This document shows positions 2,383 to 45,414 of a stretch of DNA of 64,000 nt, piece after piece. Under the pieces are notes generated by a model. The model had not been told where the DNA came from and searched no databases. It saw only the letters and a program-made list of their open reading frames with translations. The stretch spans positions 7,890 through 71,889 of the forward strand of contig CBFHUI010000002.1 in NCBI GenBank assembly GCA_965658725.1, written 5' to 3'. The DNA is from Alphaproteobacteria bacterium (lineage in GTDB: Bacteria; Pseudomonadota; Alphaproteobacteria; UBA7985). How positions within the stretch are numbered: position 1 is the stretch's first letter; each line of letters begins with the position of its first letter. The position numbers and the translations under genes are program-made.

Positions 2383-4302
<1,920 letters not shown>

Positions 4303-5240: not shown

Positions 5241-5710
5241 GACGCGCCGCTCGCCGTGTCGGCTTTGGCCAGAACAACCGTGGTGCTGTCCACGTCCACC
5301 ACTTTGGCAAACGTTCCGACATCAAAGGTCTCGTCCGATTTGGCCCGCCAAACGGTGTCGCCAATACGAACCGAGCCGGAGACCCCGGCCCGTACGGGAC
5401 GATGAACTTCAACCACCTGCCCGATCATCGACGCGCCGCGATCGTTCAGGTCGTTGTCTTCACTCGAACTGAGGAAGCGTTTCCACAGGTTTCGGCCAAC
5501 GATCAAGCCAACCAGCGATGACACGCCAAACAGCAACAGGTTCATCATCGGGAAGTCACCGGGCAGCGCCCACGCCAGCCCGGCGGTCAGAATGCCCCCG
5601 ATCCCAAACCACAGCAGCACCGTCCCCGGCACCGTCAGTTCCAGCAGCAAAAATCCGAAGCCCAGAGCCAGCCAGAACCACGGGGCGGCGAAGAGTTCAA
5701 AGAATCCCAT
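5237..5710 (-). CDS. NfeD-family membrane protein (short form, OB-fold C-terminus)
   Basis: Two TM helices plus a C-terminal beta-rich domain. Immediately downstream of the SPFH gene, with RBS GGGAGGG before ATG 5710. Start chosen to avoid overlap with the SPFH ORF. Confidence 0.6.
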   Translation of the reverse strand: MGFFELFAAPWFWLALGFGFLLLELTVPGTVLLWFGIGGILTAGLAWALPGDFPMMNLLLFGVSSLVGLIVGRNLWKRFLSSSEDNDLNDRGASMIGQVVEVHRPVRAGVSGSVRIGDTVWRAKSDETFDVGTFAKVVDVDSTTVVLAKADTASGAS

Positions 5711-6858: not shown

Positions 6859-7398
6859 ATGGCGGTTCTGCCCATTCTCATCGCGCCACACCCGACGCTC
6901 AAAGCCAAAGCCAAGCCGGTCAAGGAGGTGAACGACACCCTCCGCACCCTGCTCGATGACATGTTGGAAACCATGTACGACGCCCCCGGTATCGGGTTGG
7001 CCGCGAATCAGATCGGCTCGCTTGAGCGTGTGCTTGTCATGGACTGCGGCTCACGGGAAGACGACGAGGCGCCGCGCCCGATCAAGATCATCAACCCTGT
7101 GATCACCGGCGTCTCTGAGGAGCTTTCGACCTATGAGGAAGGCTGCCTGAGCATCCCCGAGCAATACGCCGACGTGGAGCGACCTGCTGCGGTACGGGTG
7201 AAGTACCTCGACGAAACCGGTGCAACGCAGGAGCAAGTCTTTACTGGACTGGAAGCGACCTGCGTGCAGCATGAGATCGACCACCTCGACGGTATCCTGT
7301 TCGTCGATCACTTGAGTAACCTCAAGCGCAACATGCTGATGAAGAAACTCAAAAAGCTGGTGAAGGAACGCGAGGAAGGCGTCGAGCATGACGACTGA
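6859..7398 (+). CDS. def: peptide deformylase
   Basis: Motifs GIGLAANQIG, EGCLSIP and HEIDHLDG. RBS AGAGG upstream. Confidence 0.9.
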   Translation: MAVLPILIAPHPTLKAKAKPVKEVNDTLRTLLDDMLETMYDAPGIGLAANQIGSLERVLVMDCGSREDDEAPRPIKIINPVITGVSEELSTYEEGCLSIPEQYADVERPAAVRVKYLDETGATQEQVFTGLEATCVQHEIDHLDGILFVDHLSNLKRNMLMKKLKKLVKEREEGVEHDD

Positions 7399-31051: not shown

Positions 31052-33070
31052 TTATTCCTGATGGAAGTGGTCGTAGATTTTCTGCGCGACCGTCTCCGAA
31101 ATACCATCAACGCCTTCGAGATCGGTGACGCTCGCTCGGGAGACTGAGCGAGCGGAGCCGAAGTGCAGCAGCAGCGCCTTTTTCCGCCGAGGACCGATCC
31201 CTGGTACGTCGTCCAGTGGGCTCTTTTTGATGGCAGCAGAGCGCTTCGCGCGGTGCGTGCCAATGGCGAAGCGGTGAACTTCATCGCGCAGACGCTGAAG
31301 GTAGTAGAGCACCGGATCGCGCTCGGGCATCTGAAAGGCGGGCGCGTCGGGCATGAAGAATTGCTCTCGCCCGGCATTGCGGTCAGGCCCTTTAGCAATG
31401 GCGACCAGGGGTACGTCATCGATGCCCAGCTCGGTCAGAGTCTCGACCACGGCCGAGAGCTGCCCCTTGCCACCGTCAATCAGCACCAGATCCGGCCACT
31501 GTCCATGGTCGCGGTCGGGGTCTTCCTTGAGCGCCCGAGAGAAGCGGCGGTGGAACACCTCGCGCATCATGGCGTAGTCGTCGCCTGGCGCGGTATCAGA
31601 CTTGATGTTGAACTTGCGGTAGCTGTTCTTGATGAAGCCTTCCGGCCCGGCGACCACCATGGCGCCGACGGCATTCGCGCCCTGAATGTGCGAGTTGTCG
31701 TAGACCTCGATCCGTTCAGGCGGCGCGGACAGACCAAACGCTTCAGCAACACCATCGAGCAGGCGACGCTGGGTGGAGGATTCGGCCTGCCGCCGCTCCA
31801 GCGCTTCCCGCGCGTTCCGGGTTGCGTTGGCCATGACGTCGCGCTTGACCCCGCGCTGGGGTCGTAGCAGCTGCACCTTGCGTTCTGCCTTGGCGGACAG
31901 GGCTTCTGTCAGCAGGTCGAACTCCACCGGGTCGTGGCTCACCAGGACCAGCCTTGGCACCGGCTTGTCCGCGTAGAACTGTCCGATGAAGCTGGCCAGC
32001 ACGTCGGGGATTTCGTCGCTCTTGTCGTGACGGGGGAAGTAGGCGCGGTTTCCGTAGTTGCGGCCAGCCCGGTAGAAAAACACCTGCACGCAAATCTGAC
32101 CACTGGCGCTAAAGGCTGCGATGACGTCGGCGTCTTCGATCTCCCCCTGCAGGTTGACGTCCTGATGCGCCTGTACTGCGCTGAGTGCGCGCAGGCGATC
32201 GCGCAGCATGGCGGCGCGCTCGAACTGCAGGTTCTCTGCTGCTTCCTGCATGGTCACGGCAAGCTCATCTTGAATGCGCCGGCTTTCACCGAAGAGGAAG
32301 GCTTTCGCCTCTGCCACCAAGGCGTCGTAGCCGTCCTGATCGATCTTGCCGACGCACGGCGCGGAGCAACGCTTGATCTGGTAGAGCAAGCAGGGGCGTG
32401 TCCGGTTCTCGAACACAGAATCCGAGCACGAGCGCAGGAGGAAAGCTTTCTCCAGTGCCGTTACAGTCCGATTGACCGACTTGGCACTGGCAAAGGGGCC
32501 GAAGTAGTCGCCCTTGCGCCGGTGCGCGCCGCGGTGCTTCGTCACCTGCGCAAAGGCGTGGTCGGCAGTCAGCAGGATGTAGGGAAAGGATTTGTCGTCC
32601 CGCAGCAGCACGTTGTAGCGCGGCTGAAAGCGCTTGATCAGGTTGGACTCGAGCAGCAGGGCTTCGACCTCGCTGTTGGTCACCACGATCTCCAGCCCCT
32701 TGGTTTCAGCCACCATCCGGCGCAGACGGTTGGGTAGACGTTCCAGCTGGGTGTAGTTGGTAACCCGGCGACGCAGGTTGCGTGCCTTGCCCACGTAGAT
32801 CGGGTCACCCCGGCGGTCGAGCATTCGGTACACGCCAGGTGAGCTGCTCAGGGTCTTCACGCCATCCCGGAGCGTTTGCAAGCCCATGGCAAGGTCAGAA
32901 CCGACTTCATCAGGAGACGTAGGCTGTGCGCCGGGAGAGGCCGCGGCAGCGTCCTCGTAGTCCGCAGCGTCCTCGTTCAGGGTCAGAGCAACAGACTCAT
33001 GCGCCGGCATCGCGGCGCGCTTGCCGCCGGCGCTGCTGTCGTTTTCCCGAAGGGTTTTAGCGCGTCGCAT
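31052..33070 (-). CDS. uvrC: excinuclease ABC subunit C
   Basis: GIY-YIG ([19 protein letters not shown]), UvrBC domain, RNase H-like and HhH C-terminus. Start uncertain: ATG ~33070 (acidic N-extension), ~33010 or ~32887. The GTG at 33229 lies in AT-rich DNA and is unlikely. Confidence 0.85.
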
Positions 33071-33133
33071 AATGTGAAAACTTAACTTGCTTTTCTGGGT
33101 TTCCAAAGGAACGAATGAGTTAACCACGGTTTC

Positions 33134-33154
33134 TGTGGATAACCCTGTCGATAA
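33134..33154. promoter_or_regulatory. tandem DnaA-box-like sites (TGTGGATAA ccc TGTCGATAA)
   Basis: One perfect and one 1-mismatch 9-mer within the AT-rich 350-bp island upstream of uvrC. Confidence 0.4.
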
Positions 33155-41347: not shown

Positions 41348-42205
41348 CTACTTTCCCGAAAGCTCTGCGTTCCGCACTTCGCCCGCTTCCATGGCCTCCG
41401 GGAAGAGGTCTGGAAGCCCACGGCTCGGTGCCATGAGCACGTCCAGCGCAGCCTGCGTCACACCGCCAGGGCTCGTCACTCGACGGCGCAACTCTGCGGG
41501 GTCTACATCGGGCTGTTGGCTGGCCAATTGCGCGGCACCCAGCACTGTCTGCCGGGCTGCCAGTTTGGCGTGTTCGGGTGACAGGCCGGTTTTCTCCGCC
41601 GCCGCCGCAATGCACTCGATCAGCAGGAAGACATAGGCTGGCCCGCTGCCTGTCACGCCGACCAGCGCGTCGATCTGCGCCTCGGTCTCAACCCAAATCG
41701 CCTCACCCACCGCTTCAAGCATGACTTCACCCAAGCGCGCGAGGTCAGCATCGACCGCGCCGTTGGCGAGCAGCAGGCTCATCCCCGCTCCAACCGCGGC
41801 TGGTGTGTTTGGCATGACCCGGATGATCGGCGTTTCCGTGCCAAACCAGGCCTCATAGGACGCCACCCCCACACCCGCAGCGATGGAGATCACGGCGGAG
41901 CCTGCGCTTTGCACGATGTCGATGTAATCAGCCGCGACGCCGGCCATGATCTGAGGCTTGACCGCCAGCATGACCATCGCTGGCGCACAGCCAGAGGGCA
42001 GGGCCTCAACGGACGCGAGACAGGCAACGCCAGCCGGCGCACTGCCCGCCTCGGCCATCACCGGGTCAACAATCAGAACCGCGTCAGGCGACAAGCCGGA
42101 ACGCAGCCAGCCATCTAGCAGCGCGCCACCCATATTGCCGCAGCCAGCGAGGATAAGGGGACGATCGGAACGGAAAGCAGATAAATCAGTCATGCCCTTG
42201 GACAT
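41348..42205 (-). CDS. proC: pyrroline-5-carboxylate reductase
   Basis: Rossmann N-terminus and P5CR signature VTSPGGVT. Confidence 0.85.
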   Translation of the reverse strand: MSKGMTDLSAFRSDRPLILAGCGNMGGALLDGWLRSGLSPDAVLIVDPVMAEAGSAPAGVACLASVEALPSGCAPAMVMLAVKPQIMAGVAADYIDIVQSAGSAVISIAAGVGVASYEAWFGTETPIIRVMPNTPAAVGAGMSLLLANGAVDADLARLGEVMLEAVGEAIWVETEAQIDALVGVTGSGPAYVFLLIECIAAAAEKTGLSPEHAKLAARQTVLGAAQLASQQPDVDPAELRRRVTSPGGVTQAALDVLMAPSRGLPDLFPEAMEAGEVRNAELSGK

Positions 42206-42232
42206 GCCAGACTGAAGGGGCGGGGAAAAGGC

Positions 42233-42742
42233 CTAAGCTTCGCCCTGGGTTTCCAGCAGGGACGCAGCGAGCGCATCCTGTGGGTCGCGGCCGCCCCAGA
42301 TGACGAACTGGAACGCCGGGTAGAAGCGATCACACTCGCCCACGGCCACATCGACCAGATCCTCGATCTGCTCGTGGCTGACACCGCCAATGCCGCGCAG
42401 CAGCAGGGTATGACGGAACATCAGCGAAGATTCTTCCTTGGACAGCTCAAAGTGACCGACCCACAGGCGGGAATTCACTTCGGCGAGCAAGGTGTTGATT
42501 TCCTGATTGAGTCGCGCGGGCGCGCGCATCTCAAGCATACAGGTGGTGTGCAGCGCCTGAACCTCACCTTGCCAGAAGCAGTGCAGCTGGTAGGTGGCCC
42601 ACTGGCCGGGGCAGGCAATGACGAGTTCGGACTCACTGGGACGAGCAATCGACCAATCGCTCTCGCCAGAGAGCATGTCTTCGAGCGCATCGATCGGGTT
42701 CAGGATCTCTTCGCGCGCGAAATCCATGCGTGAAAACGCCAT
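42233..42742 (-). CDS. YbjN-domain protein
   Basis: 169-aa acidic protein with a YbjN-like duplicated fold; often adjacent to proC. Confidence 0.6.
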   Translation of the reverse strand: MAFSRMDFAREEILNPIDALEDMLSGESDWSIARPSESELVIACPGQWATYQLHCFWQGEVQALHTTCMLEMRAPARLNQEINTLLAEVNSRLWVGHFELSKEESSLMFRHTLLLRGIGGVSHEQIEDLVDVAVGECDRFYPAFQFVIWGGRDPQDALAASLLETQGEA

Positions 42743-42789
42743 CGATTTAGCTCCCCAACAACTCTCGTTCTAACGGCACCCCAAAGGCA

Positions 42790-42809
42790 TTATCCACAGC
42801 TGTGGATAA
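42790..42809. promoter_or_regulatory. 20-bp perfect palindrome of two head-to-head DnaA boxes (TTATCCACA gc TGTGGATAA)
   Basis: Seen directly in sequence. A third DnaA-like box AAATCCACA lies ~30 bp downstream, and a CTTCCT-N7-AGGAAG repeat follows. Confidence 0.45.
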
Positions 42810-43046
42810 CAGCCGCGCTTTGCTGCGTTTAGGCTGTAAATCCACAAATACTTCCTAGCTATGAGGAAGCGTTATGCGATGGATATCGTCCTTTGTATCT
42901 CAAATCGTCGAGTCGAAGTCTAGAGCGGACGCATAATAATTTGCGCACAGGCTCTGTGGAGCGATGGCTAAAAATCCAATGAATCCAAACTATGCTTGGG
43001 GATAAGCGCAAAAAAACCAGTGAATTCGGCGATCAATTAAGGCGCG

Positions 43047-43307
43047 TCACTTCGCGTCTTTTTCTGAAAGTTTTTCTTCCAGCGCATCAAGCCGTTTTTT
43101 CAGTGCTTCGTTCTCTTCGCGCGCCGTTCGCGCCATCTCGCGCACCACCTCAAACTCTTCCCGCGGGACCACGTCCATATCAGCGAGGGCAGATTCCATG
43201 CGTTGTTTGATCAGAGTCTCCACCTCCGAACGCGCGCCCGCAATCGTCCCGGCGGCACCGTTAGCCAGGCGGGCAAGGTCGTCGAAGAAGCGGTATTGGG
43301 TCTGCAT
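43047..43307 (-). CDS. UbiK/YqiC (BMFP) family accessory protein
   Basis: 86-aa coiled-coil protein MQTQYRFFDDLARLANGAAG.... Confidence 0.6.
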   Translation of the reverse strand: MQTQYRFFDDLARLANGAAGTIAGARSEVETLIKQRMESALADMDVVPREEFEVVREMARTAREENEALKKRLDALEEKLSEKDAK

Positions 43308-43426
43308 GGCGTCAATCCTTGGAAAATGAGCGCGGTTCCGACCCTTCATATAGCATGATGCCTTCCGCTCGCCACAGCCTCGACATAGAACAGGGACAAA
43401 GCACCTTTGAGGTTTGTGAGACACCC

Positions 43427-44302
43427 ATGGAATTCCTGTCCGGCTGGACCCTGCCGCTCTTGGCTGAAATCCCCTTTCCAGCGATTGACCCCGTCCTGAT
43501 CAGCATCGGCCCCATCCCGATCCGTTGGTATTCGCTGGCTTATATTGCGGGCCTCATTCTCGGTTACATCTGGGTGCGACGAAACCTGAGCCGGACGACG
43601 AGCGTGGACGCAAGGGCCATGGATGATCTGTTCTTGTGGATCATCGTGGGCGTTGTTGCCGGAGGACGGCTGGGGTCAGTGCTGTTCTATGGGTTGCAGC
43701 AGGACCCGCAGCTTTATCTGAGCAATCCCATGGCATGGCTTGCGGTTTGGGATGGCGGGATGTCGTTCCACGGGGGCTTTCTGGGTGTGCTGCTGGCGGT
43801 CATTCTATGGTCGCGCTTCAACCGGAAGACCGGCTTCTGGGAAGTCACCGATTTGCTCGCCATTTCTGCGCCTATCGGTCTGTTCTTTGGCCGCATCGCG
43901 AACTTCATCAACGCCGAGCTCTATGGCCGCCCCAGCGACGTTCCTTGGGCCATGCGCTTCCCGCTCTATGACCGGCAGGGCGAGGTCGCGGCCTACACCG
44001 AGCCGCGGCATCCGAGCCAGCTTTATGAAGCGGTGCTCGAGGGGCTGGTGCTGTTCGTGGTGCTGAACCTGTTGTGGCGGAATGCGGCGATCCGGGCGCG
44101 TGCTGGGATGGTGACGGGGGGCTTCATGCTCGGCTACGGGTTGTTCCGCTTTCTGGTTGAGTTTGTGCGCAAGCCTGATGACGGGATCGAAGCCGGATTC
44201 ATCAAGGTGGCTGGTTTGGGAGCCTTCACCACGGGCCAGGAGTTGTCTTTTCCGATGATCATCTTCGGGCTGGCACTGGTCTTGTGGCGGCGGCGGGTGT
44301 GA
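43427..44302 (+). CDS. lgt: prolipoprotein diacylglyceryl transferase
   Basis: FPAIDPVLISIGPIPIRWYSLAY aligns with the E. coli Lgt N-terminus; conserved HGG and GR..NF..E..G motifs. Confidence 0.85.
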   Translation: MEFLSGWTLPLLAEIPFPAIDPVLISIGPIPIRWYSLAYIAGLILGYIWVRRNLSRTTSVDARAMDDLFLWIIVGVVAGGRLGSVLFYGLQQDPQLYLSNPMAWLAVWDGGMSFHGGFLGVLLAVILWSRFNRKTGFWEVTDLLAISAPIGLFFGRIANFINAELYGRPSDVPWAMRFPLYDRQGEVAAYTEPRHPSQLYEAVLEGLVLFVVLNLLWRNAAIRARAGMVTGGFMLGYGLFRFLVEFVRKPDDGIEAGFIKVAGLGAFTTGQELSFPMIIFGLALVLWRRRV

Positions 44303-44304
44303 CC

Positions 44305-45414
44305 ATGGCGCAGTCAGCGACCCCCCTTACCGACTCACTCAAGGCGCAGATCCGCGCAACCGGCCCGCTGACCGTGCCGGAGTTCATGACCCTCGCGCTT
44401 CAGCACCCCGAACACGGGTACTACACGCGCCAAGAAGCCATCGGCGCATCGGCTGACTTTGTGACGGCACCGGAAATATCGCAGGTGTTTGGTGAGCTGA
44501 TTGGGCTTTGGCTGGTGCAGCGGTGGATTGATCTGGGGCAACCTGGGCGGTTCCTGCTGGTGGAGTTGGGGCCGGGCAAAGGAACGCTCATGGCCGACGC
44601 CTTGCGCGCGGCGAGCGCCATGCCGACTTTCCTGCCCGCCATGGAACTGGTGTTGGTTGAGACCAACGAGACCTTGCGCGCCGCCCAGGCTGAAAAGCTC
44701 GCTGCCTATACCCCGCGCTGGCTGGACAGCTTCGGCGCGTTGGAGGCCGATGCGCCGCTGTTAGTTGTTGGCAACGAGTTCCTCGACGTTCTGCCTAGCG
44801 CGCAATTTGCTGTCGCTAAGGGGGCTTGGTTCGAACGGCTGGTGTCCATCGACGCGGAGAGCGGTGCGCTGAGTTTTGTGCTGGGACAGCCCAAAACCCC
44901 CGTTCTACCCCTGCTGCCTGAGCCGGTCGAAGGTCGGTTTCATGAGATCATGCCGTCGCTTCCCGGTTTCCTAAAAGACCTCTCAAGCGCTCTCAAGGCG
45001 CAGACCGGTGCCGCGCTGTTCATCGACTATGCCCACGAAGAAGACGCCTCTGCCTGGAGCCTGCAAGCCGTTCAGGCGCACGAAAAGGTAGACCCGCTGG
45101 AGGCTGTGGGCGAGGCGGATTTGACGACGCTGGTGGATTTCCGCGCCGCGAGCCGCTTTGCCAAAGAAGTCGGCCTGAGCGTGCCCGACCCGGTGTCCCA
45201 ACGAGACTTCCTGCTGGTACTTGGCGCGTGGCAGCGGTTTGAGATGCTGGCCGAAAGCGCCCCGGATGACGCCGCCGACCTGCTGCAAGCGTTGCAGCGA
45301 CTGGTGGGTAAGGCGCAGATGGGGACACGGTTCAAGGCGTGGACCTGCCACTTTCCAGAAACCCTTCCCGCGCCTGCGGGCTTCCCTACCAGCGGTGGTA
45401 CAGACCGTGGCTGA
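44305..45414 (+). CDS. class I SAM-dependent methyltransferase, MidA/NDUFAF7 (DUF185) family
   Basis: FVTAPEISQVFGELIG and LVELGPGKG motifs. Confidence 0.7.
   Translation: MAQSATPLTDSLKAQIRATGPLTVPEFMTLALQHPEHGYYTRQEAIGASADFVTAPEISQVFGELIGLWLVQRWIDLGQPGRFLLVELGPGKGTLMADALRAASAMPTFLPAMELVLVETNETLRAAQAEKLAAYTPRWLDSFGALEADAPLLVVGNEFLDVLPSAQFAVAKGAWFERLVSIDAESGALSFVLGQPKTPVLPLLPEPVEGRFHEIMPSLPGFLKDLSSALKAQTGAALFIDYAHEEDASAWSLQAVQAHEKVDPLEAVGEADLTTLVDFRAASRFAKEVGLSVPDPVSQRDFLLVLGAWQRFEMLAESAPDDAADLLQALQRLVGKAQMGTRFKAWTCHFPETLPAPAGFPTSGGTDRG

Follow-up and report, generated by a model that had tools for sequence, protein, structure and literature searches.

What does a perfect head-to-head pair of consensus DnaA boxes do directly ahead of ybjN and proC? 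The pair lies in a 64-kb stretch of alphaproteobacterial DNA, referred to below as the window, whose closest relatives are uncultured marine Alphaproteobacteria MAGs labelled Geminicoccus sp., Rhodospirillaceae or Alphaproteobacteria. It is located in the 304-bp spacer (42743-43046) between two minus-strand genes, ubiK and ybjN. The original prediction had placed it upstream of minus-strand ybjN-proC, and this placement is borne out by the matches of the two gene products to the Pfam YbjN and TIGR00112 families. The gene order ubiK-ybjN-proC is widespread: of 80 related loci, 71 have ubiK ahead of ybjN and 68 have proC behind it on the same strand. Comparison of YbjN with solved structures gave no meaningful match. 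The answer developed below is that the pair would be a conserved DnaA operator in the ybjN-proC leader, linking the output of the operon to the replication cycle; judged from sequence comparison, this reading is reasonably probable. The features on which the argument draws are listed here in order of position.

41348-42205, minus strand: proC (TIGR00112, 8e-62), starting 27 nt past the ybjN stop.
41348-42742, minus strand: ybjN-proC operon, the presumed regulated genes, from family matches and an intergenic gap of 27 nt.
42233-42742, minus strand: ybjN (Pfam YbjN, 6e-23).
42740-42759, minus strand: ybjN ribosome-binding region (GTTGGGGAG) and ATG, invariant in 11 genomes.
42790-42809, no strand assigned: inverted (head-to-head) pair of consensus DnaA boxes, TTATCCACA-GC-TGTGGATAA, read directly from the sequence, with the ybjN ATG 47 nt downstream.
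42810-42837, minus strand: hairpin P2, of variable sequence (ACAGCC...GGCTGT in the window), separating box 3 from the pair.
42838-42846, plus strand: third DnaA-like box (box 3), AAATCCACA, with two mismatches; on the gene strand it reads TGTGGATTT and precedes the pair by 28 nt.
42851-42869, minus strand: hairpin P1, CTTCCT-N7-AGGAAG, conserved in structure and not in sequence.
42895-42924, minus strand: near-invariant 30-nt block (24 of 30 columns in alignment A1, 11 genomes), TCTAGACTTCGACTCGACGATTTGAGATAC on the gene strand.
42933-42961, minus strand: sigma-70-like promoter candidate, TCCACA-N16-TATTAT (9/12 in a consensus scan), its first hexamer inside CTCCACAG.
42997-43005, minus strand: fourth DnaA box, TTATCCCCA, with one mismatch, located directly after ubiK and ahead of both promoter candidates.
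End at 43047, minus strand: ubiK/BMFP, the same-strand gene upstream of ybjN.

The cluster of DnaA boxes in this spacer is far beyond chance. The palindrome reads TTATCCACAGCTGTGGATAA in full, and each half matches the consensus at 9/9 positions. Its presence had been predicted, together with that of a two-mismatch box about 30 bp away and of the CTTCCT-N7-AGGAAG inverted repeat, and all three are found in the sequence (for the repeat, CTTCCT at 42851-56, seven nucleotides, and AGGAAG at 42864-69); the box TTATCCCCA had been overlooked. DnaA-like boxes within 216 bp therefore comprise two with 9/9 matches, one with 8/9 and one with 7/9. When only boxes with at most one mismatch are counted, the spacer contains three, compared with 0.04-0.08 expected, a number reached in none of 5000 shuffles, and it is the densest such cluster of the 64-kb window. 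A palindrome with 18 specified bases is expected about 1e-6 times in 64 kb. The lower GC content claimed for the region of about 300 bp is real, at 47.0% versus 61.6% for the window, but the description as an AT-richer island does not hold beyond that, since the folB-uvrC spacer of the same window, at 43.8%, shows this to be ordinary intergenic composition.

Conservation of the palindrome was assessed in an alignment of the spacer (A1) comprising the window and ten genomes (L001-L009 and L013) whose YbjN proteins are 92-98% identical. The inverted pair keeps its position and its 2-bp spacer in all ten relatives, while the surrounding leader is highly variable; 12 of the 20 columns of the pair are invariant, versus 28% across the whole spacer. 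The TCCACA of the left half is identical in all 11 genomes. Variants of the half-sites include TTATCCACA followed, after two nucleotides, by TGTGGGTAA, TGTGGAAAA or TGTGAACAA, as well as CTTTCCACA-nn-TGTTGATAA, and the substitutions strike one half at a time. The relaxed consensus of the E. coli DnaA box is TTWTNCACA, and several of the half-site changes, such as A to T at position 3, fit it. The core of box 3 (GTGGA or GTGGG) is retained in 7 of the 11 genomes, and the box TTATCCCCA is invariant in all 11. The distance from TTATCCCCA to the pair is 194-196 bp in 10 of the 11 genomes despite the highly variable sequence between them, which hints at a phasing or looping constraint. Read in gene orientation, the conserved blocks of the spacer are TTATCCCCA, CTCCACAG, the 30-nt block, CGCATAA, the GTGGA of box 3, the pair and the ribosome-binding region.

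The association of ybjN with DnaA boxes extends well beyond these close relatives. In 32 Rhodospirillales loci with YbjN proteins about 50% identical, from Magnetospirillum, Phaeospirillum, Telmatospirillum and others, 249 kb of sequence contains exactly 32 perfect TTATCCACA boxes, one per locus, where about 2 would be expected. Each lies 27-29 nt upstream of an invariant CTTGC, which resembles a -35 element and is followed by a -10-like TAGnCTAC ahead of ybjN. The box is single and non-palindromic in these loci. A single, non-palindromic 9-mer upstream of a promoter-like element fits DnaA and does not fit a dimeric palindrome-binding protein or an RNA element. No perfect box was found upstream of ybjN in Azospirillum, Thalassobaculaceae and Nisaea; consequently, the link between DnaA and ybjN appears to be specific to certain lineages.

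The geometry of the pair was followed independently of ybjN by scanning metagenome contigs for TTATCCACANNTGTGGATAA. At least 120 stretches matched, and 80 loci were read. Among these listed matches, dnaA starts within 160 bp of a perfect inverted pair in 39 of 80, mostly at a distance of 16-85 nt, a range that includes the 47 nt separating the window pair from its start codon. Eight of the ten flanking open reading frames scanned among the matches listed encode DnaA, and a ninth encodes DnaN. The recurrence of the pair at dnaA in 39 of the 80 listed loci argues that this geometry is a natural DnaA operator. The operators of these dnaA leaders share with the window the arrangement of two opposed boxes, the 2-bp spacer and a position tens of nucleotides before a start codon; they control dnaA, whereas the window pair adjoins ybjN-proC and is without a third tandem box. 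Autorepression of dnaA through such boxes is established in E. coli and B. subtilis. A third tandem box is present in 53 of the 80 loci among the matches listed, exactly 3 bp away in 46 of them, and is combined with an adjacent dnaA in 36 of the 80, a layout similar to the DARS core but with a 2-bp spacer. In the window, the flanks of the pair (CCGCGCTTT and ACCCCAAAG) match such a box at no more than 2/9 positions by inspection. The three-box form, TTATCCACA-NN-TGTGGATAA-NNN-TGTGYGTAA, occurs directly upstream of dnaA in many unrelated bacteria of 30-67% GC; examples from the loci read (L082-L161) are L125 at 4041-4072, L090 at 5552-5583 and L101 at 7137-7168. None of the 80 metagenome loci among the matches listed encodes YbjN or ProC, and the scan thus added no further members of the ybjN locus itself.

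The leader of ybjN also contains RNA structure, and the manner in which paired positions change distinguishes this structure from the palindrome. In alignment A2, all five pairs of hairpin P1 are compensated, with both sides changed, and its covariation score is reached in none of 500 shuffles. Hairpin P2, judged by eye and from single-sequence folds only, has a differing self-complementary sequence in each relative. Treated as a hairpin in that alignment, the palindrome has compensatory changes in 0 of its 8 pairs, and four of the pairs depart by mispairs alone; for pairing of box 3 with the distal half-site, the count is 0 of 7. In the group of L005, the palindrome is unable to fold (0.0 kcal/mol) and is still conserved in place. 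The contrast between 0 of 8 pairs in the palindrome and 5 of 5 in P1 suggests that the palindrome consists of two half-sites for protein binding and does not form a hairpin. The hairpin reading was consequently rejected for want of compensatory changes, and so was the pairing of box 3 with the distal half, in which box 3 is complementary but no change is compensated. The covariation of P1 suggests that the region is transcribed, and the palindrome is therefore probably situated inside the ybjN leader, not upstream of its promoter. As a separate matter, an intrinsic terminator was rejected: TGCCTTTGGGG follows the palindrome and provides no U-tract, and a terminator scan of the region was empty.

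Against this background, several other explanations of the palindrome have to be weighed. One of them assigns it to RNA only: the palindrome and box 3 would be alternative hairpin arms controlling translation or attenuation, and the match to the DnaA consensus would be incidental. The leader hairpins are indeed under structural selection, and in minimum-energy single-sequence folds the distal half pairs with box 3 in 5 of 9 leaders and with the ribosome-binding GGGGAG region in L005 and L006. Such pairings of the distal half are a consequence of the inverted arrangement, which makes the boxes complementary from the outset. One compensatory change, CGCA/UGUG to AGCA/UGUU in L005, L006, L007 and L013, ties the proximal (right) half-site to the upstream CGCATAA block (A2 columns 23-27 with 104-108, in the window about 42794-42798 with 42875-42879). 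In addition, ybjN leaders of other Rhodospirillales clades (L014, L015, L016, L020, L029, L065 and L076 among them) share a CCACAAnAT(C/G)T motif about 100-150 nt upstream, which in Thalassobaculaceae takes the form of a CCACA-N3-TGTGG palindrome flanked by covarying-looking hairpins, to be compared with CCACA-GC-TGTGG in the window. Nevertheless, every substitution within the palindrome, or between box 3 and the distal half, breaks pairing, the agreement of the TTAT/ATAA flanks with the DnaA consensus exceeds what pairing would require, and the boxes upstream of the promoter, TTATCCCCA here and TTATCCACA in the distant loci, cannot act as RNA. Rfam gave no match at E up to 1 over 41500-44500, and no family matched at the gathering threshold in the leaders of eight related loci. 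The RNAalifold consensus of the leader is weak, at only -4 kcal/mol, with clear covariation in P1 only. An explanation by RNA alone is accordingly unlikely, although the same sequence may have an additional role at the RNA level. In Magnetospirillum moscoviense (L074, 1164-1388), an ordinary tandem glycine riboswitch, unrelated to this leader, is located about 2.6 kb upstream of ybjN. It is still less probable that the palindrome serves a different dimeric transcription factor, one recognising TCCACA-N2-TGTGGA. A perfect 20-bp dyad would be usual for an operator bound by a homodimer, and the invariance of TCCACA in the left half would agree with one. However, the same 9-mer recurs singly and without dyad symmetry at ybjN in the 32 distant genomes and again, as TTATCCCCA, within this spacer; unrelated bacteria show the identical 20-mer geometry concentrated at dnaA; and the two halves drift independently.

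If DnaA is accepted as the binding protein, the site may be compared with those known from other bacteria. In E. coli, ChIP-seq has shown that DnaA prefers tandem pairs 2-3 bp apart, not inverted ones, and that many single consensus boxes are unbound (PMC11317965). The E. coli double DnaA box (Stringer et al. 2024, PMC11317965) likewise consists of two 9-mers 2 bp apart, a spacing that points to a DnaA dimer as the binding unit; its boxes are direct repeats, whereas those of the window pair are inverted. The tandem case in the window is the pair at 33134-33154 upstream of uvrC. DnaA roadblocks are mentioned in the same work, in which the guaB site was not confirmed by ChIP-seq (PMC11317965). 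As at the roadblock sites of asnC and guaB in E. coli, the boxes in the ybjN leader lie downstream of a likely promoter, and by analogy DnaA bound at the pair could stop an elongating RNA polymerase. The asnC and guaB cases involve single, orientation-dependent boxes. A further comparison is offered by DARS1 of E. coli, TTATCCACT-attcc-TGTGGATAA-cca-TGTGTATTA, in which boxes I and II are 5 bp apart and box III follows box II in tandem after 3 bp (PMC6868365). Boxes I and II are oppositely oriented in the cores of DARS1 and DARS2, which is also the orientation of the window pair (PMC6868365); the window pair differs in its 2-bp spacer and in having no tandem box III. The datA locus of E. coli and the clusters of B. 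subtilis are also non-origin, intergenic sites with several boxes. Compared with these, the cluster ahead of ybjN has fewer boxes, a fixed placement close to the gene and, in distant relatives, only one box.

The window also contains an element in which the geometry of the DARS1 core is reproduced. In the folB-uvrC spacer, at 33120-33154, TTAACCACG-gtttc-TGTGGATAA-ccc-TGTCGATAA presents an inverted box, 5 bp, a perfect box, 3 bp and a tandem box, with the uvrC ATG at 33070. The E. coli DARS1 core is located upstream of uvrB, the three-box element of the window upstream of uvrC. Five relatives keep the tandem pair. The complete arrangement of three boxes was also seen in L207, L208, Azospirillum sp. 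Vi22 (L211) and Pelagibius litoralis (L212), but not in the three closest relatives. The element may be a counterpart of DARS in Alphaproteobacteria, or it may serve as a conserved operator through which DnaA acts on uvrC. The presence of a second conserved cluster upstream of uvrC indicates that boxes of the E. coli consensus type are in use in promoter regions of this lineage. We know of no DARS or datA equivalents in Rhodospirillales-type Alphaproteobacteria.

These comparisons bear on two further explanations, in which the site would serve replication itself. In the first, the spacer is a locus controlling the DnaA cycle, either by titration, as at datA or the B. subtilis clusters, or by nucleotide exchange, as at DARS, and regulation of ybjN-proC is secondary. 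The four DnaA-like boxes in 216 bp with their conserved spacing of 194-196 bp would suit such a locus, and the head-to-head orientation is that of boxes I and II in DARS1 (TTATCCACT-attcc-TGTGGATAA, PMC6868365). On the other hand, the spacer is 2 bp and not 5, the tandem box III is absent, the single box of distant clades is too few for titration, a far better element of DARS geometry stands 9.6 kb away upstream of uvrC, and the fixed position relative to promoter and start codon fits gene regulation. A primary role in the DnaA cycle is therefore rather improbable. A broader version of the idea, for which the chances are similarly slim, holds that the ybjN spacer and the uvrC element, 9.6 kb apart, are both non-origin DnaA-cycle loci of Rhodospirillales-type Alphaproteobacteria, or that YbjN is a replication or cell-cycle factor under DnaA control. 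In the second explanation, the spacer is part of a chromosomal or cryptic replication origin, a possibility that the original prediction had already considered much less likely. It has in its favour a cluster of boxes in an AT-richer spacer and a divergence of gene orientation about 300-650 bp away, between ubiK (minus) and lgt (plus). However, GC skew keeps its sign across the site, at +0.019 for the 20 kb to the left and +0.016 for the 20 kb to the right, and the cumulative skew within the window rises through the site with no switch. Searches with DnaA and DnaN by tblastn found neither dnaA nor dnaN in the 64-kb window, the spacer at 47% GC is no more AT-rich than the folB-uvrC spacer, and distant relatives have a single box here. 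Due to the absence of a skew switch and of dnaA and dnaN, an origin was rejected, and it is to be regarded as extremely improbable.

Two promoter candidates are present upstream of the pair. The TCCACA-N16-TATTAT candidate is tentative: CTCCACAG, which contains its first hexamer, is invariant in 11 genomes, but its -10 hexamer is poorly conserved in the relatives. The second candidate, CTAGAC...GATACA, lies inside the 30-nt block at 42895-42924, which is better conserved than the DnaA boxes themselves. A consensus scan and the alignment of relatives revealed no conserved canonical -10 in either candidate. The 30-nt block may be a promoter with a constrained spacer, the site of another factor, or the 5' end of the leader, and it is possibly the counterpart of the promoter-like TTGAAC/CTTGCG...TAGTCT elements of other Rhodospirillales.

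DnaA-dependent control of the downstream genes, as proposed in the original prediction, has gained comparative support from the ten close relatives, the 32 Rhodospirillales and the geometry linked to dnaA. From the sequence, conservation, substitution pattern and dnaA recurrence observed, we infer DnaA binding, the sign of its effect and the position of the transcription start. In the proposed mechanism, two DnaA molecules would bind the inverted pair, probably aided by the weaker box 28 nt upstream. DnaA bound at the pair would then lower transcription into ybjN-proC or stop it altogether, through a roadblock or through occlusion, in the manner known from dnaA, so that the effect of the operator is probably repressive. 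The box TTATCCCCA, or the equivalent TTATCCACA in other Rhodospirillales, would form a second DnaA site upstream of the promoter, which could either stimulate transcription or hold one end of a DnaA-DnaA loop to the pair. The output of ybjN-proC would in this way follow the level or activity of DnaA, that is, the replication cycle. Several observations were counted against this operator: neither promoter candidate is clean, most of the dnaA-linked pairs among the matches listed carry a third tandem box that the window is without, E. coli DnaA prefers tandem pairs and leaves many single consensus boxes unbound (PMC11317965), and the distal half is paired in folds while the right half shares a compensatory event with CGCATAA.

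The ybjN-proC operator is most likely a fresh case of a known type of control, not a replication origin. A full-text literature search returned no report of ybjN-proC in the DnaA regulon, none is known to us, and nothing useful was found in the literature on YbjN in connection with DnaA or with Alphaproteobacteria. If the reading is true, the DnaA regulon would include ybjN-proC as a conserved member throughout Rhodospirillales-type Alphaproteobacteria, and this would provide a first functional clue to the widespread YbjN-domain protein encoded between ubiK and proC. The head-to-head pair with a 2-bp spacer would then be a recurrent natural operator, used at dnaA in many bacteria; it would involve no new principle and would be useful for predicting DnaA regulons in uncultured bacteria. 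Among the metagenome matches listed, the pair also occurs in other contexts, including a gene for the small subunit of ribonucleotide reductase and a recurrent AAA_22 ATPase. The latter is found in soil metagenome contigs with no dnaA nearby, where a perfect pair is located 120-285 bp from a gene for an AAA_22/AAA_16 ATPase of about 425-460 aa (L088, L104, L128, L134 and L157).
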